From positions 1 through 35,542 of the IMG/VR virus record IMGVR_UViG_3300026534_000040: a DNA stretch of 35,542 nt. One strand, written 5' to 3'. Below are positions 110 through 35,026 of this stretch, piece after piece. Position 1 is the first letter of the stretch. Each line of letters starts with the position of its first letter. The translations under genes and the position numbers were made by a program. Source of the stretch: a virus (lineage: Duplodnaviria > Caudoviricetes). The notes under the pieces were generated by a model, which saw nothing but the letters and a program-made list of their open reading frames with translations, searched no databases and was not told the DNA's origin.

Positions 110-147
110 AAAACAAATTGACCAAAATTTTAAATCAAATTGACCAC
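110..147 (+). repeat. Two tandem end repeats (CAAATTGACCA, 22-bp period), putative transposase-binding sites
   Basis: CAAATTGACCA at 114-124 and 136-146; reverse-complement copy at 35300-35314. Confidence 0.8.
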
Positions 148-151
148 AAAT

Positions 152-182
152 CACGCCGTTTAAATGGTTTTTAAACGGCGTG
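152..182 (-). terminator. 13-bp perfect inverted repeat downstream of the modification cassette
   Basis: CACGCCGTTTAAA (152-164) pairs with TTTAAACGGCGTG (170-182). The U-tail is weak, so it could instead be an end-associated protein site. Confidence 0.55.
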
Positions 183-225: not shown

Positions 226-897
226 TTAATTGCTTCCATATTGTTCAATCATTAATAAATCAGGTTTATAAATATCTTTTACATCTGTTCCCGGTTCAAA
301 AGTAGATAGCTCTTGATCCTGCGGAACTTTTTTTATGATACCGGCACTAATATCATCAAGTGCCTGCCTCATCAACTCCAAGCCAAGCGGTAACAATTCC
401 AACCGCCAAAGCTCACGTGCGGCTTCTTTTGGATTCATAGCCCAATACTTTGGTTTGATAAATACGTGTCGTTGATAAGCAATATCGCCTCTGTCTATTC
501 CGGCATTAAGCCAATAAACAGTTCCTCCGGTAACCGGCTCCCGCATTTTTATTGCCCATTCAATTGCCGACCTGCCACGATGCAGTGGTAACAAGCTCGG
601 GTGATAACCAATCCAACCCAAACGAGCTTTATATCTTGTCTTACGTCCAACATAATCAAAAGAATGAGCCGTAATACCCAAATCCACATTAGCAGGAAAA
701 TTATCGCCATTAAGCGTCCCCGCCTCAATTATAGGCAACTCGTTAATTACAGCAAGCCTGCCTATATACTTATCATCAAGCGGGCAACTCACACCCACTA
801 CTTCAACTCTCGGATGTGCCAAGCACATAGCCAAAACATCCTCCCCGAACTTTTTTTGTCCGGAAATAAATACTCTCAATTTCTTATTTGTTTTCAT
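226..897 (-). CDS. Formyltransferase (Fmt/PurN-like N10-formyl-THF-dependent domain)
   Basis: Motifs YHPSLLPLHRGRSAIEWAI, TGGTVYW and GIDRGDI. At 223 aa it lacks the Fmt C-terminal tRNA-binding domain. Confidence 0.88.
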   Translation of the reverse strand: MKTNKKLRVFISGQKKFGEDVLAMCLAHPRVEVVGVSCPLDDKYIGRLAVINELPIIEAGTLNGDNFPANVDLGITAHSFDYVGRKTRYKARLGWIGYHPSLLPLHRGRSAIEWAIKMREPVTGGTVYWLNAGIDRGDIAYQRHVFIKPKYWAMNPKEAARELWRLELLPLGLELMRQALDDISAGIIKKVPQDQELSTFEPGTDVKDIYKPDLLMIEQYGSN

Positions 898-2011
898 AAT
901 TTTTTCCTAAATATTTAAAAGCCTGTATTGCCCGAAAGTGCCCGCCATAGCCTGTTCCATTCATCATTCCTTTCCCGGTTCTTTTGATGCTCTCCATACT
1001 TTTCTTTTTATTAGCGCCGTATAGTTGAGCATTTGTCTGCACCCAAAGTGGCGATTTTCGTAAATAATTAGCCAACTGCGGGTGCGAAGTATGAAAAAAC
1101 GTGTGAAACTTCTTTCCTTTACGTCCGTATCCGTCCAAATGATACTGCATAACTTCGTTAAGAAATTTAGTTCCCACACCCGCACCTTGCCACTCGGGCA
1201 TAACAACCAACCGTGATGCCCTATAAGCATTAGCCGTGAACAAAGGCATAACGGCAACGTGAGCTACAAGCTCGCCATCAACTGTTCCCACAAAGTATTC
1301 GGCAGCCGGCGGGTGCGGTAGGTCTAAATAATAATGCTCTTTAAAAAATCGCCAGTAACTTCCGTTTGTCTTCCAAATGTCGAGCTTGATAGTGGGACGT
1401 TGCCGGATTTTTTTTTTGAAGGACATTGTCCTTGTATCATAAGCCCAATTCGGTTGCAACCACTCTATAATATCATAATGAGGCGACAGCAGAACCGCCT
1501 TACCCTTACCTCGCTTCCAAGACTTTGAAAATGCCAAAGCGCCAATCTTGGCAATCTGCCTATCAACTACCGAAGTAAACTCATCAATTACCACTTCATC
1601 CGGTTGCTCAACTAATAATCTCGCAAGTCCCGCACGGAACTGCTGTCCGTTACTTAACGCCTTAAACGGGCGAAGCCAAGCCGGAACATCGCCCAGCCCG
1701 ACCGAAGCAAGCGCACCGGTTACCGCATTAAAATCGCCGTCCGGCGCAATTTCATCAACTATTGGCTTATCATCTGCCCATCCCTCGTATAAGTTTACAA
1801 TCTTATCATCACCGAAAAACAAACGCCCGATGCTCGTTTTTCCGCTTCCGGAAGGTCCCACAATAAGCCCTAATTTCCAGTCCAAATCCTCAACCGGAAG
1901 TTCTGCCGTATGCTCCCAATTACTGCCTGTCTCGGCATTAAACAAGCTCTTAACCCTGTTAGCACGGTAGCTGTCAAACTCTGCCGTGCTGTGCTTAACT
2001 TCTATTTTCAT
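884..2011 (-). CDS. ABC-type ATPase fused to Mom-like GNAT acyltransferase
   Basis: Walker A GPSGSGKT, signature LSNGQQFR, Walker B VVIDEF, H-loop SPHYD. The C-terminus has EHYYL and GNAT motif A RLVVMPEWQGAGVG. Located at the mom-equivalent position. Confidence 0.85.
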   Translation of the reverse strand: MKIEVKHSTAEFDSYRANRVKSLFNAETGSNWEHTAELPVEDLDWKLGLIVGPSGSGKTSIGRLFFGDDKIVNLYEGWADDKPIVDEIAPDGDFNAVTGALASVGLGDVPAWLRPFKALSNGQQFRAGLARLLVEQPDEVVIDEFTSVVDRQIAKIGALAFSKSWKRGKGKAVLLSPHYDIIEWLQPNWAYDTRTMSFKKKIRQRPTIKLDIWKTNGSYWRFFKEHYYLDLPHPPAAEYFVGTVDGELVAHVAVMPLFTANAYRASRLVVMPEWQGAGVGTKFLNEVMQYHLDGYGRKGKKFHTFFHTSHPQLANYLRKSPLWVQTNAQLYGANKKKSMESIKRTGKGMMNGTGYGGHFRAIQAFKYLGKNYENK

Positions 2012-2139
2012 ACGTTTACAATTTTTAGTTTATACCCTTTCTTTTTAAGCTCCTCAAAGATTTCTATTTGCTGTTTTTCGTTTTCACAAATCACAATAAC
2101 ACCATATTGCGGTTTGTATTTGTAAGTTTTTTTTGCCAT
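2008..2139 (-). CDS. 43-aa small protein MAKKTYKYKPQYGVIVICENEKQQIEIFEELKKKGYKLKIVNV (absent from ORF track)
   Basis: Hand translation. Its TGA overlaps the ATG of the ABC-GNAT gene (ATGA coupling) and the upstream region is A-rich. Confidence 0.75.
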   Translation of the reverse strand: MAKKTYKYKPQYGVIVICENEKQQIEIFEELKKKGYKLKIVNV

Positions 2140-2162
2140 ATCTTTATTTTTATTTAATTTTG
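2132..2162 (+). promoter_or_regulatory. Bacteroidota primary-sigma promoter, antisense to the late/modification transcript
   Basis: TTTG (2132-2135)-N19-TAATTTTG (2155-2162), consensus match. Confidence 0.7.
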
Positions 2163-2163
2163 T

Positions 2164-2285
2164 TTCGTTCCACCATTAATACAGAAAGCACCCGAACCGA
2201 AGATTTTGTCCTCGGCACTTGGGTGCTTTCTGCATTTCTTATTTTGGTGGAACGAAGTAAGGAAAGTGTCGGGGGCTTTTTTTTT
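2164..2285 (+). ncRNA. Putative structured small RNA with alternative folds ending in U9
   Basis: 12-bp stems 2164-2175/2245-2256 and 2182-2193/2221-2232; alternative 13-bp helix 2208-2220/2264-2276 (G-U pairs only on +) followed by T9. Confidence 0.6.
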
Positions 2286-2309
2286 AACCCCCTTTTAACT
2301 ATTTATAAA

Positions 2310-2633
2310 TTACAAATATCTTAAAAACCCAAACATTTTTCTTTTTTTAATATATTGTAAGTTATTTTCATTAGCATATGCTTCACGTTCAAAACTAATG
2401 TTGCGATACGCCATATCTGCATTATTATACTGAAATTTTCGTATAGCATATTCTATTATATACCAAAGAAAAAAAACAATCCAAAGAAGCTCTAATTGTT
2501 GTTTCAGATGAATTTTTTCGTGATTGATTAAAACTATATCATTTTTAAACTCCGGATTTTTTAGGATGATTAGCGGAAAAATAGTTAATGCATTTACATT
2601 TTTTCCTAATATCTTTGGAAATACTATTATCAT
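2310..2633 (-). CDS. Small membrane-associated protein with HExxH zincin-like motif
   Basis: INHEKIHLKQQ...hydrophobic stretch...NISFEREAY; AT-rich. Confidence 0.65.
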   Translation of the reverse strand: MIIVFPKILGKNVNALTIFPLIILKNPEFKNDIVLINHEKIHLKQQLELLWIVFFLWYIIEYAIRKFQYNNADMAYRNISFEREAYANENNLQYIKKRKMFGFLRYL

Positions 2634-2638
2634 ATTTA

Positions 2639-3481
2639 TTAAATATTTTTATAAACAACCCACTTAACTTTTAGCTTAACTTCATAGCCTGAATTTAAAG
2701 TGCCTTGATATCTTATATTAACAACTATTTTATAATCATCATTCACTTTGATTAGATGAGCGTTAACACTATGAATAGCAACTTGACCACTAATAATGTC
2801 AATGAAAGGAGAACAGTTATAATGAACGGGGTCATCTTGTAACCCAATATTAATATAAAAATGGTTTTGATGCTCATCTAAACCGCCGTCTTGAAACGTT
2901 GTTTCCCATTCTCCCTCATCAACTATTCTTATATACTTTTTGTTTGTCAATAAATTATTCAACCCCAAAGAAGTTACCGCCTTACTGTCATCCACACCCG
3001 CATCAACCTCCGTTTGCGTTGCTATCTCCACAATACCTGCGTCATCCTCGGTAGCCGGATTAACCTTTTCCGAAATATCAAACAGTCCCTTCATCCGCTT
3101 CATATCCGCAAACAAAAATCTATCAACGCCTTCATTAGCTCCGCCAAAGCGGGCATATCTCTTATAATAGGTAGGCAAGTCTGCCAATTGACTACTATTA
3201 GTCATATCCGTATTATAAGTAGCGCTATCGATATCCTCAATTATACAAACATAATCCTGGGACTGTCCGCCTTCAAATCGATAAAGCTCTTCTTTCCAAA
3301 CAAAAAAACCAGGGCTATAACCTGTTTGATGAGCTGTTATTCCATATATAATTACCGGAGTTGATGTATCAGTAACCTGTCCGGCAACTGCCTCCGCCAA
3401 TTCCTGAATCATCGTATTTAAAAATTTCCAACTTTCCGTAGTTCCCGGATAACCGGTACTTGCAATGTTTAGTTTATTCAT
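2639..3481 (-). CDS. Tail fibre / baseplate-attached fibre protein
   Basis: Follows baseplate J/I-like genes; tail-fibre repeat ATEDDAGIVEIATQTEVDAG; AT-rich variable C-terminus. Confidence 0.7.
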   Translation of the reverse strand: MNKLNIASTGYPGTTESWKFLNTMIQELAEAVAGQVTDTSTPVIIYGITAHQTGYSPGFFVWKEELYRFEGGQSQDYVCIIEDIDSATYNTDMTNSSQLADLPTYYKRYARFGGANEGVDRFLFADMKRMKGLFDISEKVNPATEDDAGIVEIATQTEVDAGVDDSKAVTSLGLNNLLTNKKYIRIVDEGEWETTFQDGGLDEHQNHFYINIGLQDDPVHYNCSPFIDIISGQVAIHSVNAHLIKVNDDYKIVVNIRYQGTLNSGYEVKLKVKWVVYKNI

Positions 3482-3492
3482 ATCTTATTTTT

Positions 3493-4008
3493 TTAATACC
3501 ATACCAATTTATATTCCTTGCTATACAACTTATAATAGTCTACATAATACCTAACCTGACGTTCCAGTTCCGTAACCGCCTCCGGTGTTCCCGGTTTGAT
3601 AGCGTTCGGCAATTTCACAACAAAATCCGTGTTGTTTTGATTATAATCCGCTTGGTCATAATGATACACCGGCGCTCCATCAGCCGTATCGTAATGATAC
3701 ACCGGCTTATTCTCCGCCGTATCATAATACCAAATCGGCTCGTAAACCTCGACATTCTCAATTACTATCCTTCTGTCTGTATTATCAAACTTGTCGTTAA
3801 GCACTTTTCGCAAATAAACAATCTGCGAGTTATGGCTCATTATATACAACTGTTCATTTCGGAAGTCTAAAAACGCATCGTAAATCTGTTCTACCGGCTT
3901 AATCAATACCCGAAGCCACTTCATCCGCACCGTAGTGCGTAGAAAAGTGGCAACGTTCCACTGAACCAGCCGACCAAAATCAATATTGAAAATATTAGCG
4001 TTAATCAT
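3493..4008 (-). CDS. Baseplate wedge protein (tail protein I-like)
   Basis: Synteny after J-like gene; QIVYLRKVLNDKFD and DFVVKLP...VDYYKL motifs. Confidence 0.65.
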   Translation of the reverse strand: MINANIFNIDFGRLVQWNVATFLRTTVRMKWLRVLIKPVEQIYDAFLDFRNEQLYIMSHNSQIVYLRKVLNDKFDNTDRRIVIENVEVYEPIWYYDTAENKPVYHYDTADGAPVYHYDQADYNQNNTDFVVKLPNAIKPGTPEAVTELERQVRYYVDYYKLYSKEYKLVWY

Positions 4009-5282: not shown

Positions 5283-5813
5283 TTAATGTGGATATTCAGT
5301 TTGGTAATACTCTACTGCCTTTTGTCCTACTTGATTAAATAAGTCTATAACCTCCTGTATTGTGGGGTTATTTTCGTTATCCATATAATCAATCACGGCA
5401 AGTGGCCAGTCTCCCTCTTTAATCTTATTAAGCAGAGGATACACTGTCTTGTTTATTTCGGACATTATATTTATTGCGTTTGTTTTACCTACCAAAGATA
5501 AAGTTATCTGGTTTTTGATTTCATCATAGTAAGTTTGCCCATCCTGTTTCCACTTTTCATTTAGAGCATTTATTTGTTCTAATTGTTTTTGTTGCTCTTT
5601 TTGCTCAATTTCTTGTTGGCTTAAATCAATCACATCATAGGTGGCAACATTGCCCACAATATGCAAGTTTTCTAACTTTTGTGTATTTTCATCAAAAGGT
5701 AGAATAACAACTCTATAATACCCCTTACTTGCAAGTGTTTTATTACTTGCGTTATTATAATTGATTATTCCCTTAGGAACTACAAACTCTAATTTATCAT
5801 TTACATATCTCAT
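5283..5813 (-). CDS. Hypothetical protein, possible fibre-assembly chaperone
   Basis: Coupled to the LamG gene (ATGA overlap); function inferred from position only. Confidence 0.5.
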   Translation of the reverse strand: MRYVNDKLEFVVPKGIINYNNASNKTLASKGYYRVVILPFDENTQKLENLHIVGNVATYDVIDLSQQEIEQKEQQKQLEQINALNEKWKQDGQTYYDEIKNQITLSLVGKTNAINIMSEINKTVYPLLNKIKEGDWPLAVIDYMDNENNPTIQEVIDLFNQVGQKAVEYYQTEYPH

Positions 5814-6520
5814 TTCAGGAAATTGTTTTGTTGTTTGTTGTATAATTTCATCACTTCGTTAGCTGACAATTCTTTATCAAATATGGCAACCATTTGTATA
5901 TAGCCATCTAAGTTTAAACCGGAAGTCCATCTCGGATTCCCAATAGTTACTTTTGCCGATGTTAGATGCATAGATACATAGCTCCCTTTTAAATATTTTG
6001 AAGCTGTTACTAAAACCCCATTAATATAAATATTAAGCCCATTTTTATTACCACTACCATCGTAAGTAATGGTTATATGTGTCCATTTATAATTATAATC
6101 CGTGTAGTTTGTTTTAGCATAAATGTAATTATATTTTTTATAAAACAAATAAGAACTAAGATAATTATTATATATAACTATCTCCCATTCTTTATTACCG
6201 CCAGCGCTATCTATTTTTTGCAAAAAAAATGCATGTTTATATCTATTGTATAACCACATAGAAGTAGAGAATGGTTTATCATTGTTCCCATCCGTGAAAG
6301 AGAAAACAGGATTATTTGGTATTTCTATTTTTCTATCATTAGTTCTAACAAATTCAGCAGCCTGACCAACGACACCATTACCATATGTTATTCCTTGAAC
6401 AATATCAGGATTATAGTTATTACCACTGTAATCTAGCGCATCACCATCTAATCTGTAATAAGCAACTAAATTCTTAACAAGTTGGTTTGGTATGACTTTA
6501 TTTATCGCTCCTAATCCCAT
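5810..6520 (-). CDS. LamG/concanavalin-A-like domain protein, probable receptor-binding or adhesion protein
   Basis: LVAYYRLDGDALDYSGN, WTHITITYDGS, IYING, LDGYIQMVAIFDKELSANEVMKLY. Confidence 0.85.
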   Translation of the reverse strand: MGLGAINKVIPNQLVKNLVAYYRLDGDALDYSGNNYNPDIVQGITYGNGVVGQAAEFVRTNDRKIEIPNNPVFSFTDGNNDKPFSTSMWLYNRYKHAFFLQKIDSAGGNKEWEIVIYNNYLSSYLFYKKYNYIYAKTNYTDYNYKWTHITITYDGSGNKNGLNIYINGVLVTASKYLKGSYVSMHLTSAKVTIGNPRWTSGLNLDGYIQMVAIFDKELSANEVMKLYNKQQNNFLK

Positions 6521-17850: not shown

Positions 17851-17993
17851 TACCGCAAAATTCAAACGAAATAAACACTCACACAAAAACTTGTTACATA
17901 TTATCAATAAATACAATACTTTTTATAAGCTGTAAAAGCCCTATTTGTAGCAAGTTTTTGCCGTTGAAATCAAATAGAAGCAACTTTGCAGTA
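17851..17993. promoter_or_regulatory. Divergent late promoter pair with a shared upstream box
   Basis: Minus: TGTAACAAGTTTTTG-N20-GAATTTTGCGGTA. Plus: TGTAGCAAGTTTTTG-N20-CAACTTTGCAGTA. Confidence 0.7.
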
Positions 17994-18006
17994 TAATTTT
18001 TTTAAT

Positions 18007-18492
18007 ATGGCAAAGGAAAAAGAAAAGCGAATAGCCAAAGAGTTATATCTCGGAGGTAAAACACAAAAGGAAATTGCTAAAATTGTAGGCGTGCAAGAAA
18101 AAACTATCTCTATATGGGTAAACAAATTCGGATGGAAAGTCTTGCGAGATGCCCAATTATCAAAAGCCGACAATAACATTGATAATATCAAAAAGATTAT
18201 CAGCGATATTGCCGATGAAACTTTTGCGGTAAACTTAAAAATCAACAAAGAAACGGATCCGGAGGAACGCAAAGAGCTAAGAAAGTATCGCAACCAACTC
18301 GCTGACGAAGCGGCAAAATGGAACAAAGCACTCGAAAATTTGGATAAGCAAAATAAAATCAGTTTTGCCATTTACCTACAAGTTTTTGAGGATATATTTA
18401 ACTCCCTACGATTATATGACCAAAAACTATTCTTAAAAACCCTTGATTTCCAAGAAGAACATATTCAACAAAAAGCAATTCAATACCAGTAA
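18007..18492 (+). CDS. Terminase small subunit-like HTH protein (DUF1804/Mu gp27-like)
   Basis: AKELYL.GKTQKEIAKIVGVQEKTISIWV..FGW; start revised to ATG 18007. Confidence 0.78.
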   Translation: MAKEKEKRIAKELYLGGKTQKEIAKIVGVQEKTISIWVNKFGWKVLRDAQLSKADNNIDNIKKIISDIADETFAVNLKINKETDPEERKELRKYRNQLADEAAKWNKALENLDKQNKISFAIYLQVFEDIFNSLRLYDQKLFLKTLDFQEEHIQQKAIQYQ

Positions 18493-18494
18493 TT

Positions 18495-18821
18495 ATGAAA
18501 AGAGCTTATCATTACATCCGAAATTTTATTTACACGCATATACCCGGATTATATATCCGCCTACATTTGTTTAAGATGTGGCTTCAAGGTGCCGATAAAT
18601 ATCAGCGTTGGCTCGAAAAAGGCGACTTCTATATGTATCGTGGCATCCGAGTACGTCTCGGACAACCGGTTAAATACCGTATCCGTGGAATCGTCAAAAC
18701 AAAATGGGTAAAAGGTATTTATTACGACTTTGGCAAACGAAAAGTTTCTGCGCTTTATTCTGACAAGCCGATTAAAGGTTTAAGCGAAAAATTCATCAAC
18801 AATGGCAAAAAAAAGAAATAG
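18495..18821 (+). CDS. Hypothetical basic protein
   Basis: ORF between small and large terminase with an A/T-rich leader. Confidence 0.55.
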   Translation: MKRAYHYIRNFIYTHIPGLYIRLHLFKMWLQGADKYQRWLEKGDFYMYRGIRVRLGQPVKYRIRGIVKTKWVKGIYYDFGKRKVSALYSDKPIKGLSEKFINNGKKKK

Positions 18822-18927
18822 CTTAAGATTTGTTACCATACAAATAGGTGTCAATATTGTGGAACTTCCGCAATACATTACCTATGTAATAGATGATAAA
18901 AGTTTTAGCGGATATATTCACTTATGA
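18802..18927 (+). CDS. 41-aa small ORF MAKKRNSLRFVTIQIGVNIVELPQYITYVIDDKSFSGYIHL (absent from track)
   Basis: Hand translation; TGA overlaps the terminase ATG (ATGA). Confidence 0.5.
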   Translation: MAKKRNSLRFVTIQIGVNIVELPQYITYVIDDKSFSGYIHL

Positions 18928-20441
18928 AAAGACAAGACAAACTCGCATATCAGCGCTACCTCCAAAAGATAAACCTCGCCAGAAGCATTGGCGTTGAAAA
19001 TCCTTTTGAGTCCAAAGAGGAACAAAAAGCACGTATAGAGCGTGCTAAAAAAGATGTGCGATTTATGGTCGAATACTACTTTCCTCACTATGCTACCAGT
19101 CCTTCGGCTGATTTTCAACTTCAATTCGCTAACCAAGTCAAACGCAACAAAACTTATAAAGGTTTTGCCCAATGGGGACGTGGACTTGCAAAGTCCGTAT
19201 GGAACGATATTTTAATACCGTTCTGGCTTTGGCTCAACGGTGAACCTGTTTACCTTGTAATAGTTGGAAACTCACACGATAAAGCTAAACAGCTACTCGG
19301 CGATATAATGGCTGAATTTGAGGCAAACCCCCGCATAATAGCCGATTTTGGAGAACAAAAAAATATCGGTAAATGGGAGGACGGTTTTTTTATAACAAAA
19401 AGCGGTTTCATCGGTCAGGCGCTCGGTATGGGGCAATCTGTTCGCGGCTTGCGTGTAGGAGCCAAACGTCCTACGCATATCGTTGCCGATGATATTGAAA
19501 CCAAAGACATCAACAAAAATCCAAAACGCCAAAAAGAAATTGTCAAATGGATCGAACGTTCGCTTATTCCTACAATGGACGGCAATATAAGACGCTTCAT
19601 TCAAGCAAACAACCGTTTTGCTCCGGTAATGATACAAACGATGCTCCAAAAACGCCACCCAAAATGGAAAGTGCATCAAGTCAATGCTTACCATCCGGTA
19701 ACTTACCGACCGTCTTGGTATAGCAAATATGATAACAACTACTACAAAAGCGTTGAATCAGAAATCGGACGGCTTGCCGCAATGGCTGAATATAACAACG
19801 AACCGCATATCGAAGGAGCAATATTTACCGATGAAATGATACAATGGGTCAAACTGCCACGACTCGATAGCCTTGAAATCATCATCGGGCGTTGGGACGT
19901 TGCGTATGCAGGAACGCCAACATCAGATTATAATGCCGTACGAGTTTGGGGGCTTAAAGACGGTAACTTTTATTTGATTGACAATTTCGTTCGTCAAAGC
20001 AAAATGAAAGAAGCGGTCGAGTGGATGGCTAACTTCCAAAAACGATTACTCAAAACAGTTATGGTGCATTGGGGATTTGAAGCACAGTTTTGGAATGATG
20101 AAGTTTTGCGAACTATTAGCGATGTGGAAAAGGCTTTTAAACTGCATTTAAACATCAGTAAAATAGACCGCCCGCGTGTGCGTAAATATGACCGGATTTT
20201 GTCGTTACATCCATACTATCAGAATAGGCGTATCTTTTACAATAAAGCGATTGAGGCAAACGATGACACGCAGGTCGGTTTAGCACAGCTAAAAGGCATT
20301 GAACCGGGATACAAAGGATACGATGATGCACCGGATGCCGATGAAATGGCAATATCCGAATTGTCAAAATATATTTATGACACCGGGATTGAAAATAACG
20401 AAATATTAACCGCTCGTTACGAGCGACAAAAACGATTTTAA
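18924..20441 (+). CDS. terL: Terminase large subunit (Mu gp28-like)
   Basis: WGRGLAKS ATPase motif, IVADD Walker B, RWDVA...SDYNA and DDAPDA nuclease motifs. Confidence 0.93.
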   Translation: MKRQDKLAYQRYLQKINLARSIGVENPFESKEEQKARIERAKKDVRFMVEYYFPHYATSPSADFQLQFANQVKRNKTYKGFAQWGRGLAKSVWNDILIPFWLWLNGEPVYLVIVGNSHDKAKQLLGDIMAEFEANPRIIADFGEQKNIGKWEDGFFITKSGFIGQALGMGQSVRGLRVGAKRPTHIVADDIETKDINKNPKRQKEIVKWIERSLIPTMDGNIRRFIQANNRFAPVMIQTMLQKRHPKWKVHQVNAYHPVTYRPSWYSKYDNNYYKSVESEIGRLAAMAEYNNEPHIEGAIFTDEMIQWVKLPRLDSLEIIIGRWDVAYAGTPTSDYNAVRVWGLKDGNFYLIDNFVRQSKMKEAVEWMANFQKRLLKTVMVHWGFEAQFWNDEVLRTISDVEKAFKLHLNISKIDRPRVRKYDRILSLHPYYQNRRIFYNKAIEANDDTQVGLAQLKGIEPGYKGYDDAPDADEMAISELSKYIYDTGIENNEILTARYERQKRF

Positions 20442-20443
20442 TT

Positions 20444-20866
20444 ATGAATTGGCTAACCGATTTAGATCTGGAAACACAGGCATTTGATAAATTCTTGATG
20501 CAGGATAACTCTACCAATAGAGATGAAATCCTAACCAATATTGAACATCAAAATATTGAATTAATCAAAGCGAAGTTAAATAATAAATATGATACCCAAG
20601 CCATTTTTTCGACTTCCGGAAATGACCGCCATTGGCTAATCGTCAAAATACTTGCTATTTTGGTGATATACGATTTTTTCCGTAGGAACGCCGCTCGAAA
20701 AATACCCAAAGACTATCAGGAAAGATATGAATGGGCAATGAAACTTTTAGAGGATATAAAAGCAGGCAATGAAGTTCCTGCCGGACTTCCGTTTTATACC
20801 GATGAAACAGGCAACGAGCCGAATCTATTATACGGCAATAACAAAAACAAAGATTTTTATATATAA
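20444..20866 (+). CDS. Head-tail adaptor (Mu gp36/DUF1320-like)
   Basis: L..KYD...IF...R...RYEWAMKLLEDIKAG. Confidence 0.8.
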   Translation: MNWLTDLDLETQAFDKFLMQDNSTNRDEILTNIEHQNIELIKAKLNNKYDTQAIFSTSGNDRHWLIVKILAILVIYDFFRRNAARKIPKDYQERYEWAMKLLEDIKAGNEVPAGLPFYTDETGNEPNLLYGNNKNKDFYI

Positions 20867-20869
20867 GTT

Positions 20870-22153
20870 ATGAGTTGGAGAGATAAATTACAGCAATATA
20901 TTCTCGGCAAAATGCCCGAGGACAAAATAAGAGTTGAAGCCGAAATGCGTTCGGATAGTTCCGGACTAAAAATCCCGAGCAAACAAATCAAACGAAGCTC
21001 GCAAATCTTCGAACCCAAATCATACAGGGATTGGAAAGATGCCATTGCTATGGCTACCAATCCCGACGAGCCTACCTTTACTTTTTTGGCAGAGCTTTAC
21101 GATAACTTATTGCTTGACGCTCACCTGTCCGCAGTTATTGAAAGTCGTATTATGCGGGTAACCCGTAGCCGATTTATCATTCGCAAGCCTGACGGCGAGG
21201 AAATTCCGGAACTTACCAAGCTGTTTCAACGCCCTTGGTTCGAGCAGTTTGTAAAATATGCCCTGATGAGCAAATTTACAGGCGTGAAAGTATTGGAATT
21301 ATACGAACTTGACGATAACCTTGAATTAATCAAGACAACGAGCATCCCGATGGGCTATATCCAACCGGATAAAAAGAAAATAATATTTGAACCCGGAAGC
21401 AATGAAGGTTATTACTATAATAAGCCACCGGTTGATAAATTCTACTTACAAATAGGCGATGATAACCAACTCGGGCTATTGAGCCAAATAGCGCCACTTG
21501 TTTTGGCAAAAAAGCTATCAATGGGTAGTTGGCTTGACTATATCGAAAAATATGGAATCGCCCCAAGAACCATAACCACAAACAATAAAACCGAAAAGCG
21601 AGCAAAAGAGCTTTTGGATATGGCAATGAAAATGATTAGCAATCACGTTGCGGTTTTACGTGAAGGAGAAAAATTGGAAATAGGCGATATACCTTCAACG
21701 GACACCTATAAGGTTTTTGATGAGATGATAAAACGAATAAATTCCGAAATTTCCAAAAGAATACTCGGGCAAGATGCAACGGCTGAAACCAAGAGCAATA
21801 CCGGAACTTACGGCAGTATGAAAGTGATGCAAGAAGTTGCCAACGACAGACACGAAAGTGATAAGCTGTTTATTCAATATATTGTAAATAAATTGCTTAT
21901 TCCCAAACTCACCCAAATATCATCGACTTATTCGGCTTTGGCTAATGCGGAGTTTGACTGGGACGAAACCGAAACAATGACCAACGCCGAGCTTCTCGAC
22001 CGTGTCGTTTCACTTTCACAAGCTGGATTTGAAATAGATCATCAAGCTATTGCTGAAAAAACCGGAATACCAATAACCGGCATCAAATCCGCCGAAACCC
22101 AACCCATAGAAACGGAAGGGGCAAAAAAAAAAACTTTAACCCCAAAGCAATAG
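20870..22153 (+). CDS. Portal protein (DUF935 / Mu gp29-like)
   Basis: LLDAHLSAVIESR, YIEKYGIA, NSEISKRILGQ. Confidence 0.9.
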   Translation: MSWRDKLQQYILGKMPEDKIRVEAEMRSDSSGLKIPSKQIKRSSQIFEPKSYRDWKDAIAMATNPDEPTFTFLAELYDNLLLDAHLSAVIESRIMRVTRSRFIIRKPDGEEIPELTKLFQRPWFEQFVKYALMSKFTGVKVLELYELDDNLELIKTTSIPMGYIQPDKKKIIFEPGSNEGYYYNKPPVDKFYLQIGDDNQLGLLSQIAPLVLAKKLSMGSWLDYIEKYGIAPRTITTNNKTEKRAKELLDMAMKMISNHVAVLREGEKLEIGDIPSTDTYKVFDEMIKRINSEISKRILGQDATAETKSNTGTYGSMKVMQEVANDRHESDKLFIQYIVNKLLIPKLTQISSTYSALANAEFDWDETETMTNAELLDRVVSLSQAGFEIDHQAIAEKTGIPITGIKSAETQPIETEGAKKKTLTPKQ

Positions 22154-22200
22154 CCGAGTATTATGCGGATATTGACAAGCACAGGCACGCTATCGAGCCT

Positions 22201-23313
22201 GTGGCTATCGATATTAGCAAATATACAAAGCTAATACTCAAAATTGCCAAAGAGGGGTTTAAAAAAGGATTTAACAAGGTATTTGATGAAAAATTAGCAA
22301 GCACAATTTTTGACGACCTAAACACCGCCGCAAGCGCCGGTTACGGCGATAAATGGATCAAGTTTGATCCCTATCACTCCCCAACGGTTCAGCAGCTGCA
22401 AAAAAATCTTTTGTTCTTTTCAGTTGGCAAATCCGCCGAACAATTAAAAGCAATGAACGCCTTGCTTATAGACGAAAAAGGTAAAATCCGGAATTGGCAA
22501 AGCTTCCGTGATGAAGTGCTGAAAATGAATAAGCAATACAACCTGCGTTACTTGCAGGCAGAATACCAGACTTCCAAGTCATCTGCACAAATGGCACGCA
22601 AGTGGCAGGAAGCACAAAAACGCAAACATTTATACCCAAATCTTAAATACCTAACGGTTCACGATAGCCACGTGCGGGAGGAACACGCCAAACTTCACGG
22701 AATTGTCCGCCCGATTGATGACCCTTGGTGGGATACTCACTATCCGCCTAACGGCTGGCGTTGCCGTTGCTCTGCCCAATCTACCCGAGACGCCGTTACG
22801 CCAAAAGATAAGATACCACACGTTCCGGTACATAAACACTTTCGGCATAATGTTGGTAAAACAGGTAAGATATTTGATGAAAAACATCCGTATTTTAAGC
22901 ATTTAACAAAAAGTATTTTTAGAAAATTAAGCAAAGAAGCAGATAATAGATTAGCTATTTATACTGCTAATAAAGTAAGACAATGGGCAAAGGATAATTT
23001 AGTGGGTAAAGCTATTACGGCAAAAGATAAGCCAAAGTTTATTTTAACGGGGAGAGATATTAAAGTAATTACGTTTAAGCCACACAAATACAGATGGATC
23101 AGAAACAATATGCTTTATGATATTAATAAATATTATAAAGAAAGTAAGCTAGTACATACAGCCTTTGAAATGAAAGGGAGAAAAAAATATAAATATTGGT
23201 ATTATTATGAAGTTGGTATTGAGGGGAAAAAGTTTTATTTAAATATTGTAATGCTGGCAAATGGTGAAAAGAAATTACACGCAATAACAGATAGTATTAT
23301 AAAAAAGGAATAG
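22201..23313 (+). CDS. MuF (gp30-like) minor head protein with variable C-terminal extension
   Basis: YLTVHDSHVREEH..LHG...DDPWW...YPPNGWRCRC; the AT-rich ~130-aa tail ends YYYEV...FYLNI...LHAITD. Confidence 0.88.
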   Translation: MAIDISKYTKLILKIAKEGFKKGFNKVFDEKLASTIFDDLNTAASAGYGDKWIKFDPYHSPTVQQLQKNLLFFSVGKSAEQLKAMNALLIDEKGKIRNWQSFRDEVLKMNKQYNLRYLQAEYQTSKSSAQMARKWQEAQKRKHLYPNLKYLTVHDSHVREEHAKLHGIVRPIDDPWWDTHYPPNGWRCRCSAQSTRDAVTPKDKIPHVPVHKHFRHNVGKTGKIFDEKHPYFKHLTKSIFRKLSKEADNRLAIYTANKVRQWAKDNLVGKAITAKDKPKFILTGRDIKVITFKPHKYRWIRNNMLYDINKYYKESKLVHTAFEMKGRKKYKYWYYYEVGIEGKKFYLNIVMLANGEKKLHAITDSIIKKE

Positions 23314-23403
23314 CTTCTCAATCACTAGCCCGTAGATATGCATACTACGGGGGGATTAAGAAGCTACACCACAAATATACAACAATTTTTATACCAAAGT
23401 CAA
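23311..23403 (-). ncRNA. Convergent promoter plus 56-nt hairpin at the 3' end of MuF (putative antisense/antitoxin RNA)
   Basis: Stems 23311-18/23359-66, 23320-23/23354-57 and 23329-35/23345-51; minus-strand TTG-N21-TATATTTG (23372-23379). Confidence 0.5.
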
Positions 23404-23408
23404 GTTTT

Positions 23409-23912
23409 ATGTCAAAAAATTTTAAAACACCCGATTTTTCAAGAATGTGGAAACAATTACGGCAAGATCTGGTAGAGATTGCCGCTACCGAAGGCGAAAA
23501 CTTTTTTCATTCGTCTTTTGATAAAGAAGGTTTTACCGATGTTGCTTTTGAGCCTTGGCAAAAAACACACGAGCAGTTAGGGTATAAGATACTAACAAGA
23601 GGCGGAACTTTAAGAAAATCAGTGCAAACTTTTGAAGAGTCATTAAATAGAATTGTATTCGGCTCGGATTCCGAATATGCCGAAATTCACAATAACGGAG
23701 GTATTATTCCTATAACTAAAAGAAGCCGAGGCTTTTTTTGGAAAATGTATGAAAAAACAGGTGATATAAAATGGAAATATCTTGCACTTACCAAAGCAGA
23801 TCACTTTAAAATGCCCAAGCGCCAATTCATAGGCGAGAGTAAAACACTACTGGATAAACTTGACAAAATATTAACCGGCGAAATATCCGAAAGATTTAAT
23901 AATTTAAAATAA
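23409..23912 (+). CDS. Virion morphogenesis / tail completion protein (Mu gpG, P2 S-like)
   Basis: ILTRGGTLRKS...YAEIHNNGG...MPKRQFIGES. Confidence 0.85.
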   Translation: MSKNFKTPDFSRMWKQLRQDLVEIAATEGENFFHSSFDKEGFTDVAFEPWQKTHEQLGYKILTRGGTLRKSVQTFEESLNRIVFGSDSEYAEIHNNGGIIPITKRSRGFFWKMYEKTGDIKWKYLALTKADHFKMPKRQFIGESKTLLDKLDKILTGEISERFNNLK

Positions 23913-23917
23913 TCATT

Positions 23918-24463
23918 ATGGCACAATTACAAAGCTGGCAAGCATTATACAAAGAACTTGCCGAAAGAATTATCGAAAAAATACCCGAAGTAAAATGGGT
24001 GGATCTATGGAGCAACCAAATAGGATTCATTGAGGATGAGCAGATGTTCCCAACCCCTGCCGTATTCGTTTCCTTCCGTATGCGCAGTCCGGAGGATGCA
24101 GGCGACAATATTCAAAACGTGCAGTTGCAAATTGATATGTATTATTATCACGAAACCTTTGCCGATACTTTTGAGGGGAGTTACAACCAAGCCAACGCAC
24201 TTGCTTATTTGCAAATCCTTACCAAATTGCACCAAGCCTTTCACGGAACATCGGGAGATAATTACAGCAGTATGCAACGTATAGACGTTGCACCGGTAGA
24301 GGCGTTTAGAGGTAATTTTTATCGTATTTCATTTGGTTGCTTAGCAACGGATATATCCGCAAGCAATATCAGAAGTCAGGCAACCCCCGGAGATATTAAT
24401 CTTTCGGAAGGAGATAAACCGGGCGATACCGAACCGCCTATCTTCGATATTTCCCTCGGCTAA
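23918..24463 (+). CDS. Tail terminator-like protein (Mu gp37-like)
   Basis: IPEVKWVDLWSNQ...FPTPAVFVSF; synteny. Confidence 0.65.
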   Translation: MAQLQSWQALYKELAERIIEKIPEVKWVDLWSNQIGFIEDEQMFPTPAVFVSFRMRSPEDAGDNIQNVQLQIDMYYYHETFADTFEGSYNQANALAYLQILTKLHQAFHGTSGDNYSSMQRIDVAPVEAFRGNFYRISFGCLATDISASNIRSQATPGDINLSEGDKPGDTEPPIFDISLG

Positions 24464-34420: not shown

Positions 34421-34798
34421 ATGGGACTATTCAACAAAATTTTAGGAAACGCATCAGAGGTATCATCTGAAAAGCTACAAGAGAAATACGGAAAAGTATT
34501 AATCACCGGTGAGCAGATAGAGCTCGGCTTTAAACTAATGAGAGATGTCTTTATGTTTACAAACAAAAGACTTATTTTAATAGATCACCAGGGCTTCTCC
34601 GGAAAGAAAACAGAAGTATTATCTCTACCATACAAAAGCATATCAAGGTTTAGCTTGGAAAGTGCCGGAACATTAGACCTGGACGCTGAGCTAAAAATCT
34701 GGATATCCTCTGAAAACTCACCTACGGTATCCAAAAAGTTTAATAAGACAATAGATATTTACGAGGTTCAAAAGTTTTTAGCCGAAAAAGTGCTATAA
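34421..34798 (+). CDS. Bacterial PH-domain protein (YvbH/bPH_1-like)
   Basis: MGLF..ILGNAS...RDVFMFTNKRLILIDHQG.SGKK...LPYKSI.RFS.E.AG..DLDAELKIWIS. Confidence 0.88.
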   Translation: MGLFNKILGNASEVSSEKLQEKYGKVLITGEQIELGFKLMRDVFMFTNKRLILIDHQGFSGKKTEVLSLPYKSISRFSLESAGTLDLDAELKIWISSENSPTVSKKFNKTIDIYEVQKFLAEKVL

Positions 34799-35026
34799 AA
34801 CGCCTTAAAACAAATTGACCGCAATACATTGCGGGTATTTTTGGCGTTTTTTATGATATTTATTTGTATATCAATGTTTTAAGCCTATTTTTAAGCGGCA
34901 GATAACCCCCTTTTAAACTACTTAAAAGCGTGGCGAGAACCCCTATATTTTTACGTATTTCTTTACGTATAAGGCTATTTTTTGGAAGTAAGTATATATT
35001 TTCAAGTATGTTTTTACGCTAAAAAC

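Follow-up and report, generated by a model that had tools for sequence, protein, structure and literature searches.

What does a cassette of three overlapping genes do for a Mu-like phage when it lies at the end of the genome, in the place that mom holds in phage Mu? The preliminary description of this locus proposed a new DNA hypermodification pathway, in which a GNAT acyltransferase fused to an ABC ATPase would add an acyl or aminoacyl group to a base, and a formyltransferase would then N-formylate the resulting amine or, alternatively, the donor. The window analyzed here, i.e., the whole stretch of DNA, is the entire virus record of 35,542 bases. The phage that carries the cassette is Mu-like, its gene set including a transposase, a MuB-like protein, the Mu portal, gpF, gp36, and GemA. 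We infer a flavobacterial host, because relatives of the cassette sit in the genomes of Tenacibaculum, Riemerella, Chryseobacterium, and Kaistella.

Genome End and Gene Content

The cassette and the adjacent genome end comprise the following features.

110–149, plus strand: tandem end repeats, likely transposase-binding sites, with further copies at 34811 and 35301
152–182, minus strand: 13-bp perfect inverted repeat, terminator-like, 3' of the formyltransferase gene
226–897, minus strand: 223-aa enzyme of the N10-formyl-THF-dependent formyltransferase fold, nearest to the FDH/ALDH1L1 hydrolase domain, predicted formyl-CoA synthase
884–2011, minus strand: 375-aa protein in which an ABC ATPase (about residues 1–200) continues in frame into a GNAT acyltransferase (residues 205–370, approximately), assigned by Pfam, PHROG 11143, an AF2 model, and fold searches
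2008–2139, minus strand: 43-aa small protein with the motif QYGVIVICE, likely a docking or activator subunit (PHROG 28816, E 9e-18)

The 10-mer CAAATTGACC occurs at positions 114, 136, 34811, and 35301, i.e., in four copies against 0.18 expected. Since copies are present at both genome ends, the cassette is the last unit before the end, approximately 80 nt away from the inner copy of the end repeat. The terminator call at 152–182 is weak on its own, because two terminator-like sites were found and 2.2 were expected.

The ORFs of the 43-aa and 375-aa proteins overlap by 4 nt (ATGA), and those of the 375-aa and 223-aa proteins by 14 nt. The arrangement reported in the preliminary description, three overlapping genes on the minus strand at 2008–2139, 884–2011, and 226–897, is thus as stated, and domain scans recovered the same contents, namely, the 43-aa protein with QYGVIVICE, the ABC-GNAT protein with its HY motif, and a formyltransferase without the C-terminal domain of Fmt. 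The absence of a permease was borne out as well. The domain scan took in 46 window ORFs, picked from 69 ORFs of at least 90 aa, and none of the 46 was recognized as a mom, methylase, or permease gene. A role of the cassette in transport was rejected because these ORFs include no cognate permease; the NCBIfam transporter matches all fell far under the cut-off.

The ABC-GNAT Protein and its Small Partner

The N-terminal part of the 375-aa protein carries the motifs of an ABC ATPase: Walker A GPSGSGKT (position 52), the signature LSNGQ (119), a variant of LSGGQ, Walker B VIDE (141), and the H-loop histidine H178. Residues 1–201 of the AF2 model match ABC NBDs (Z 14.7, rmsd 3.2, 175 aligned). Motifs and predicted NBD fold together place the protein in the ABC ATPase superfamily. 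Residues 208–371 of the model match GNATs (Z 14.7), and this part of the sequence contains HYYL (226) and QGAGVG. The corresponding CoA loop, Q-G-x-G-x-G, does not vary among the 51 representatives, and neither do the Y and L of HYYL; the HY motif and two invariant arginines are kept too. The family is very common, with thousands of homologs (5683 at E ≤ 1e-20 among 7999 scored). A gene of phage pT24 is a tblastn relative (34%), and one database protein, P0031, known as a protein record only, has all cassette domains fused in a single chain.

In the fold search with the GNAT model, acetyltransferases acting on proteins and small molecules score highest (Z 14.9 and below), and the 50 fold matches listed include neither Mom nor TmcA. 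The Mom profile PF25680 has no match in the window protein and is touched by 2 of 51 family members, at E 0.022, while hhalign against a natural Mom gives a probability of 0.3. Membership of the Mom family was rejected on these profile tests. When equivalents of Mom's HTH-like insertion and of its residues D149 and R151 were sought, the GNAT model showed a basic helical insertion of low pLDDT. The match to the NAT10 profile is weak (E 0.064).

The 43-aa protein is, by sequence, a free-standing form of the C-terminal domain of a ParB-like protein that precedes ABC-GNAT elsewhere. This small domain lies upstream of ABC-GNAT in 115 of the 117 ABC-queried loci, and it is free-standing in 84. The fused forms are annotated as ParB-like, and of two such forms scanned one matched ParB_N. 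ParB-like partners are described as activators of a phage DNA-modifying dioxygenase in the available part of PMC13229309.

The Formyltransferase and its Conservation

Formyl_trans_N is the only domain found in the 223-aa protein (E 2e-14). There is no match to the C-terminal tRNA-binding domain of Fmt, and the score against the Fmt equivalog TIGR00460 is 54.6 bits, with a cut-off of 201.5; on these grounds, identification of the enzyme as Fmt was rejected. In the amine formyltransferases Fmt and PurN, an Asn is located two residues before the catalytic His. In 48 homologs of the cassette enzyme, this position is occupied by G (39), I (8), or V (1) and never by Asn, and H99, S101, and D135 are invariant (48/48). 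The family profile matches FDH best (E 2.5e-46), followed by Fmt (4e-29), HypX (4e-16), and PurN (2e-15); the values for FDH and Fmt lie 17 orders of magnitude apart. In FDH and HypX, formyl is passed on to a pantetheine thiol via a His-Ser/Asp-Asp triad, according to the accessible text of PMC6802093. By its triad and its closest profile, the 223-aa enzyme fits the FDH/HypX-like thiol formyltransferases, even though the His-Ser-Asp triad is no proof of thiol chemistry, because it is common to Fmt and ArnA.

The co-occurrence loci are the best matches of our scans rather than a census; of the 117 that were found by the ABC-GNAT query and have both domains, 95 have a formyltransferase gene next to ABC-GNAT, 20 end at a contig edge, and 2 are without it. 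The grouping of the formyltransferase with ABC-GNAT, on which the pathway of the preliminary description was built, is thus conserved in the close family (95/97 complete loci), but it does not extend to the family as a whole. Among 18 Firmicutes-type loci, the formyltransferase is missing in all 16 complete ones, the other two ending at a contig edge, and none is annotated beside the ABC-GNAT gene in six distant phages. Its place is taken by an ASCH gene in the Firmicutes-type locus 315.4 and by a class III CoA-transferase and PanD in phage Jace. Among other cultured carriers of the cassette, Gordonia phage Axumite has the third gene, and Lactococcus phage P335 does not. Because the formyltransferase is missing in some lineages and replaced in Jace, the third gene looks like an exchangeable supplier of the acyl donor rather than a second-step enzyme. 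The same replacement, together with the closest relationship to the thiol-formylating FDH domain, favors supply of formyl-CoA to the GNAT. Of the two orders proposed initially, formylation of the donor is hence preferred, and acylation of the base followed by N-formylation is less likely.

A Shared Leader and the DNA-Modification Slot

Upstream of the cassette, the com position is occupied by a structured element.

2152–2290, plus strand: conserved structured leader (hairpin 2164–2256, whose loop 2208–2220 can pair with 2264–2276, followed by T9)

The hairpin has a z of −9.7, and a TAnnTTTG motif facing the antisense direction is located at 2155–2162. In 18 aligned copies of the leader, a loop-to-3' helix of at least 8 bp can be formed in 17 on the antisense strand and in 12 on the sense strand, and sequence changes among copies preserve the loop-to-3' pairing (antisense strand, segment before the T-run). 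CAAAnnTA is found downstream in 18 of 19 representatives with the hairpin apex motif; in reverse complement, it reads as the −7 promoter motif of Bacteroidota. No Rfam family was found for the leader, and we predict that it encodes a small antisense RNA with a pseudoknot, about 120 nt long and at 2168–2285, or a regulatory element. Contigs that skip the leader hairpin were set aside, as their flanks are short.

A pattern derived from the leader found 99 stretches, of which 80 were examined; 44 had the full element, and the other 36 were left out. The first gene behind the 44 full leaders belongs to the cassette in 14 cases, to Mom in 2, to D12 adenine methyltransferases in 11, to C5 methyltransferases in 2, and to thymidylate-synthase-like proteins in 15. 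For all 14 cassette cases and for three others, the call was made by N-terminal likeness rather than by a Pfam scan. Both Mom genes match PF25680 (E about 1e-62), and in sister phages Mom and the cassette are swapped behind the same leader. The thymidylate-synthase-like genes are often paired with a D12 methylase and could serve nucleotide supply rather than modification. In a scan of 194 loci, the zinc ribbon Com (PF10122) was directly upstream of the cassette in 9. In non-Mu phages, the cassette adjoins terminase genes and ParB-like proteins, and in phage PX29 a DNA methyltransferase is located two genes away from it.

Since one leader precedes the cassette, true Mom, and DNA methyltransferases, and since Com precedes the cassette in 9 loci, the placement of the cassette in a DNA-modification slot is well supported. 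The original assignment to DNA modification at the mom position is strengthened by this context, which falls short of proof. As a marker of DNA-modification genes, the shared leader can serve in the search for further ones. A separate, baseplate-anchored search for sister phages gave 4 loci.

Predicted Recoding at the Domain Junction

Two features coincide at the junction between the ATPase and GNAT domains.

1408–1417, minus strand: A10 run at the junction, in frame here, predicted slippage or frameshift site
1324–1417, minus strand: 30-codon tail in the overlapping +1 frame, with LKSIII-stop at its end

Neither of them, nor the structured leader, had been picked up in the preliminary description. 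If one A were skipped, a 228-aa ATPase-only product (2011 to 1324) is predicted.

A quick-version tree was used only to place the window among its A-run relatives. The junction was found in 32 of the first 33 relatives and is out of frame in 29 of these (27 in −1, 2 in +1). Near-duplicates included, there are 90 A-run loci, with the −1 frame in 85, the +1 frame in 3, and an in-frame junction in 2. An in-frame A_AAA_AAR is present in the window and in 33 of 33 −1-split A-run representatives; the available part of PMC5009743 describes it as a dnaX-type frameshift site and documents slippage where a run has at least 9 A. In Firmicutes phages, the gene is split in −1 at GTT TTT C. The zero-frame product of split genes ends about 30 residues on in III or ITI, with a stop overlapping HYYL (39/39).

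The in-frame representatives (n = 60, <90% identity, GC 36–70%) have the same tail in the +1 frame. That frame is stop-free over 32 codons in 60 of 60, the next-longest runs being 9 and 11, and about 39 open frames of 60 would be expected from synonymous resampling; this and the following tail and codon counts overstate independence, because the representatives are related. The tail stops at one position with an I(T/I)I-type ending in all 60, and its frame, stop position, and ending are the same in 39 of 39 −1-split representatives. All three stop codons are in use (28/22/8 of 58; 0.43 expected), and the stop is held in 16 of 16 representatives at 70% dereplication (0.35 expected). The codons over the tail stop are strongly biased, with CAT for His in 58/60 and TAT for the last Tyr in 59/60, against backgrounds near 48%. 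The junction Leu is encoded by CTT in 51 of 51 (background 23%), whereas codon usage is mixed at five other Leu sites taken as controls; a count over 58 in-frame representatives includes 7 with another codon instead of CTT. An SD-like motif precedes CTT by 3–4 nt in 29 of 32 representatives outside the short-formyltransferase clade and in 1 of 19 inside it, compared with 30 of 1061 in the control. The RF2 signal likewise consists of CUU_U with an internal SD, according to the available part of PMC5009743. The codon after the junction CTT is a sense codon, mostly CGG or TGG, so the signal acts in the manner of RF2 without being the RF2 cassette itself. Of seven held-out phages, obtained after the tail and stop pattern had been defined, six keep both (Jace, LE4, Pmp13, P12024S, pT24, and Komp), and the tail stop is missing in PX29.

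The window is without the RF2-like SD-CTT signal; it is a rare in-frame form with A10 and an intact tail, and the short product would result only if one A were lost or the frame moved by +1 on this run. No downstream stimulatory structure was found at A-runs (mean z −0.5; 35 sequences, 60-nt window). No indel at A10 was seen in the contigs of four other runs (X2–X5), which drop rare variants; the run is bridged by a contig in each of X3, X4, and X5, and the in-frame form is the consensus. As an 87%-identical database protein is likewise in frame at the junction, an assembly error at A10 finds no support.

On the simplest view, almost every lineage produces two chains, reached from opposite frames, an ATPase with the tail and an ATPase-GNAT fusion. 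The conserved tail, the RF2-like signal, and the −1 splits make it likely that both are produced everywhere; for the family, we regard the production of two products as very likely, and for the window itself as probable. ABC domains function as dimers, and an asymmetric dimer of the two chains is therefore likely. Profile comparison of the tail with the 43-aa protein gave no match; by eye, the C-terminus of the tail (G-x-x-L-K-x-I-x-I) looks like that of the small protein (G-x-x-L-K-V-V-x-V), which is at most a hint of likeness.

Proposed Mechanism and Alternatives

In the mechanism that we propose, the third enzyme would transfer a formyl group from N10-formyl-THF to CoA, and the GNAT would transfer it from formyl-CoA to an exocyclic base amine of the phage's own DNA, giving an N-formyl base. 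As the target, cytosine N4 is slightly favored over adenine N6. Against this product speaks the chemical lability of N-formyl groups attached to base amines. The short ATPase-only and long ATPase-GNAT chains would be derived from one gene by frameshifting or slippage, and where the formyltransferase is missing, the donor would be another acyl-CoA. We further infer expression late in infection, with marking that would protect the phage DNA from restriction; an ABC heterodimer of short and long chains, which would give ATP-driven help to the GNAT; and a 43-aa protein that would dock onto or activate the complex, by analogy to the ParB-dependent phage dioxygenases (PMC13229309, available part).

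That DNA is the substrate, with a modification of some kind, is likely. Given a DNA substrate, formyl-CoA is somewhat favored as the donor; the CoA loop leaves the donor unfixed, because Mom binds acetyl-CoA yet uses Gly-tRNA, as stated in the available parts of PMC7261163 and PMC13219725. The whole chain from formyl-THF through formyl-CoA to an N-formyl base on phage DNA, with an asymmetric ABC dimer, has in our judgment about an even chance. A broader reading would see widespread DNA formylation by a formyl-CoA synthase, a GNAT that writes a previously undescribed N-formyl base, and an asymmetric dimer, with recoding signals of three convergent types (an RF2-like +1 shift on a sense codon, −1 at A_AAA_AAR, and −1 at GTTTTTC) and an antisense pseudoknot RNA controlling the Bacteroidota slot; it is tentative and, on balance, somewhat doubtful.

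The mom slot and the HY motif, which is common to Mom and whose H58 and Y59 matter for Mom activity (PMC13219725, available part), could also point to an aminoacyl route, in which the GNAT would move an aminoacyl group from a charged tRNA to the base and the formyltransferase would N-formylate the new amine or the aminoacyl-tRNA. The amine-formyltransferase fold of the third enzyme would suit this route, with its match to Fmt at E 4e-29. However, that enzyme is nearer to FDH than to Fmt and has neither the Asn nor the tRNA-binding domain, the GNAT family shows no profile match to a natural Mom, PF25680 being touched by only 2 of 51 members, and the third gene is missing or replaced by CoA enzymes in other lineages; we consider the aminoacyl route unlikely, albeit the likeliest of the alternatives. 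Next in probability is a cassette that acylates RNA or protein rather than DNA, e.g., for shut-off of host tRNA or ribosomes or on virion proteins. The swapping of the cassette with Mom and DNA methyltransferases behind one leader, its position after Com, and its terminase and ParB-like neighbors in non-Mu phages argue against such a target, while it would be consistent with the resemblance of ATPase plus GNAT to TmcA/NAT10, including the weak NAT10 profile match, with protein N-acetyltransferases among the top fold matches, with the ASCH neighbor in one lineage, and with the finding that no recognizable DNA-binding domain is present in the three cassette proteins of the window.

It is improbable that the GNAT acetylates DNA from host acetyl-CoA everywhere and that the third enzyme is an accessory formyl-THF hydrolase or an eraser. 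In its favor, the FDH domain has a hydrolase role too, the third gene is missing from many lineages, and the CoA loop is intact, but the coupling in 95/97 close loci and the all-domain fusion in the protein record P0031 fit direct hand-over better. The A-run could also be an ON/OFF phase-variation tract, with split genes OFF or dead and no second product selected. Run lengths of 6–11 do occur, and the nearest relatives display three frames (in frame in the window, −1 in L003, +1 in L004). Nevertheless, the A-run loci are overwhelmingly in −1 (85/90), including A6 and A7 runs too short for efficient slippage, run-less lineages keep the tail, the stop, and CTT, and no length variants were found in four runs, although contigs drop rare variants. 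Phase variation is thus the least probable of these alternatives, with a slim chance.

If the proposed formylation of phage DNA is true, it would give phage anti-restriction chemistry both a base and a donor route that are new, and an RF2-like +1 shift on a sense codon at GC 36–70%, with −1 shifts elsewhere, would be a rare case of convergent recoding that sets a subunit ratio. An in-frame, codon-optimized gene would yield the long chain only, possibly in inactive form, so that assays must keep the native junction.

Relation to Known Systems

The cassette was initially called new, which overstated the case: an ABC-ATPase plus GNAT system had already been predicted to acylate a DNA base (PMC7824862, available part, citing Iyer 2013). 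That prediction (Iyer, Zhang, Burroughs, and Aravind 2013) concerns the same domain pair, and its example, pT24, is a relative of the gene studied here. In the available part of PMC7824862, the formyltransferase, the recoding, the short product, and the leader, all of them features of the present cassette, go unnamed. Full-text literature searches found no assay of the cassette and no frameshift report, although Iyer 2013 and the 2020 ABC classification may mention the formyltransferase or other features; likewise, no +1 signal, family-wide tail, or leader-slot test was found reported for the ABC-GNAT family, and in the available portions of the GeneTack paper and its supplement, a gene of this kind is not named either. 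What is added here, from sequence comparison, is the leader-slot evidence, the assignment of a formyltransferase closest to FDH, and the candidate recoding signals across the family.

TmcA has a helicase-like ATPase and not an ABC ATPase. The TmcA/NAT10 enzymes nevertheless resemble the cassette in combining an ATPase with a GNAT, and they acylate an exocyclic base amine of RNA. Like the cassette, Mom of phage Mu has a GNAT fold, an HY motif, and a slot at the genome end, with Com upstream (as in 9 relatives of the cassette). In contrast to Mom, the cassette protein falls outside the Mom profile and is fused to an ABC ATPase, and the system has three genes instead of one. Its donor is predicted to be an acyl-CoA, whereas Mom carries out a Gly-tRNA-dependent modification of adenine, according to the available part of PMC13219725. 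The best structural relatives of the third gene product are the hydrolase domain of FDH/ALDH1L1 and HypX's N-terminal domain, with the same His-Ser-Asp triad; the cassette enzyme is stand-alone, has a GNAT partner, and carries no ACP, dehydrogenase, or decarbonylase domain.

In the candidate recoding signals, the in-frame lineages resemble RF2 (prfB) by the internal SD before CUU but differ from it by a sense codon (CGG, TGG, or AGG) after CUU, where RF2 has UGA. The split lineages, with A_AAA_AAR and A9+ runs, resemble dnaX, in which one gene likewise gives a long and a short subunit (tau and gamma). Unlike in both RF2 and dnaX, the +1 shift would here yield the short product, and different lineages would use opposite frames to obtain the same two products.

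Leader element and the genes behind it

A hairpin with a predicted pseudoknot, located at positions 2152–2290 of the window ahead of the cassette, is kept in four loci of other genomes (L003, L005, L007, and L009) and in 44 elements among the 80 examined stretches that match the leader-derived pattern (L225–L304). Judged by its sequence, the element also carries a promoter motif pointing antisense and a T-run; no match to an Rfam family was found for it. In every case, i.e., in the 44 elements and the named loci, all from Bacteroidota phages, the genes behind the leader are DNA-modification or thymidylate-synthase-like genes. Directly upstream of the leader in the window lies one further gene:

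2310–2633, minus strand, 107-aa protein with a match to PHROG 15610 (protease) and an HE..H motif

The same leader stands ahead of a gene for a thymidylate-synthase-like protein of approximately 212 aa, paired with a D12-type adenine methyltransferase-like gene (L237, L246, L252, L254, L281, and others). Both gene orders occur, and the pair is possibly another uncharacterised modification module.

Variants of the ABC-GNAT locus

In one clade the formyltransferase is shortened at the N-terminus to about 130–190 aa and has an IFHPS motif (L001, L008, L036, L049, L053, and others); in the database protein P0031 such a shortened formyltransferase is fused to ABC-GNAT. At the ATPase/GNAT junction of this clade the CTT codon is present and the SD-like motif is absent, and by eye the CTT sits within a possible stem-loop.

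Three further loci:

L214, 2399–5549, copy in the large Straboviridae phage PX29
L215 (LC168164.1), 2495–3667, pT24 copy with an in-frame stop within the GNAT part
L216 (phage Jace), 3571–4682, aspartate decarboxylase and class III CoA-transferase, downstream of ParB and ABC-GNAT

The PX29 copy, two genes away from a DNA methyltransferase-like gene, has neither the upstream small domain nor the tail stop. The pT24 copy, annotated as two genes in its record, reflects either a broken gene or a sequence error. The two Jace enzymes may supply a different acyl-CoA, e.g., beta-alanyl-CoA.

Other genes of the window

5810–6520, minus strand, protein with a LamG/concanavalin-like domain, encoded among the tail genes
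17986–24463, plus strand, terminase, portal, gpF, and gpS genes
34421–34798, plus strand, bacterial PH-domain protein (bPH_1)

A Pfam neurotoxin receptor-binding match in the first protein overlaps the LamG match and likely reflects a shared fold. The protease, capsid, and tail genes are on the strand opposite to the terminase group, with the divergence point at about 17900. The PH-domain gene adjoins the repressor, at the window end opposite the cassette.
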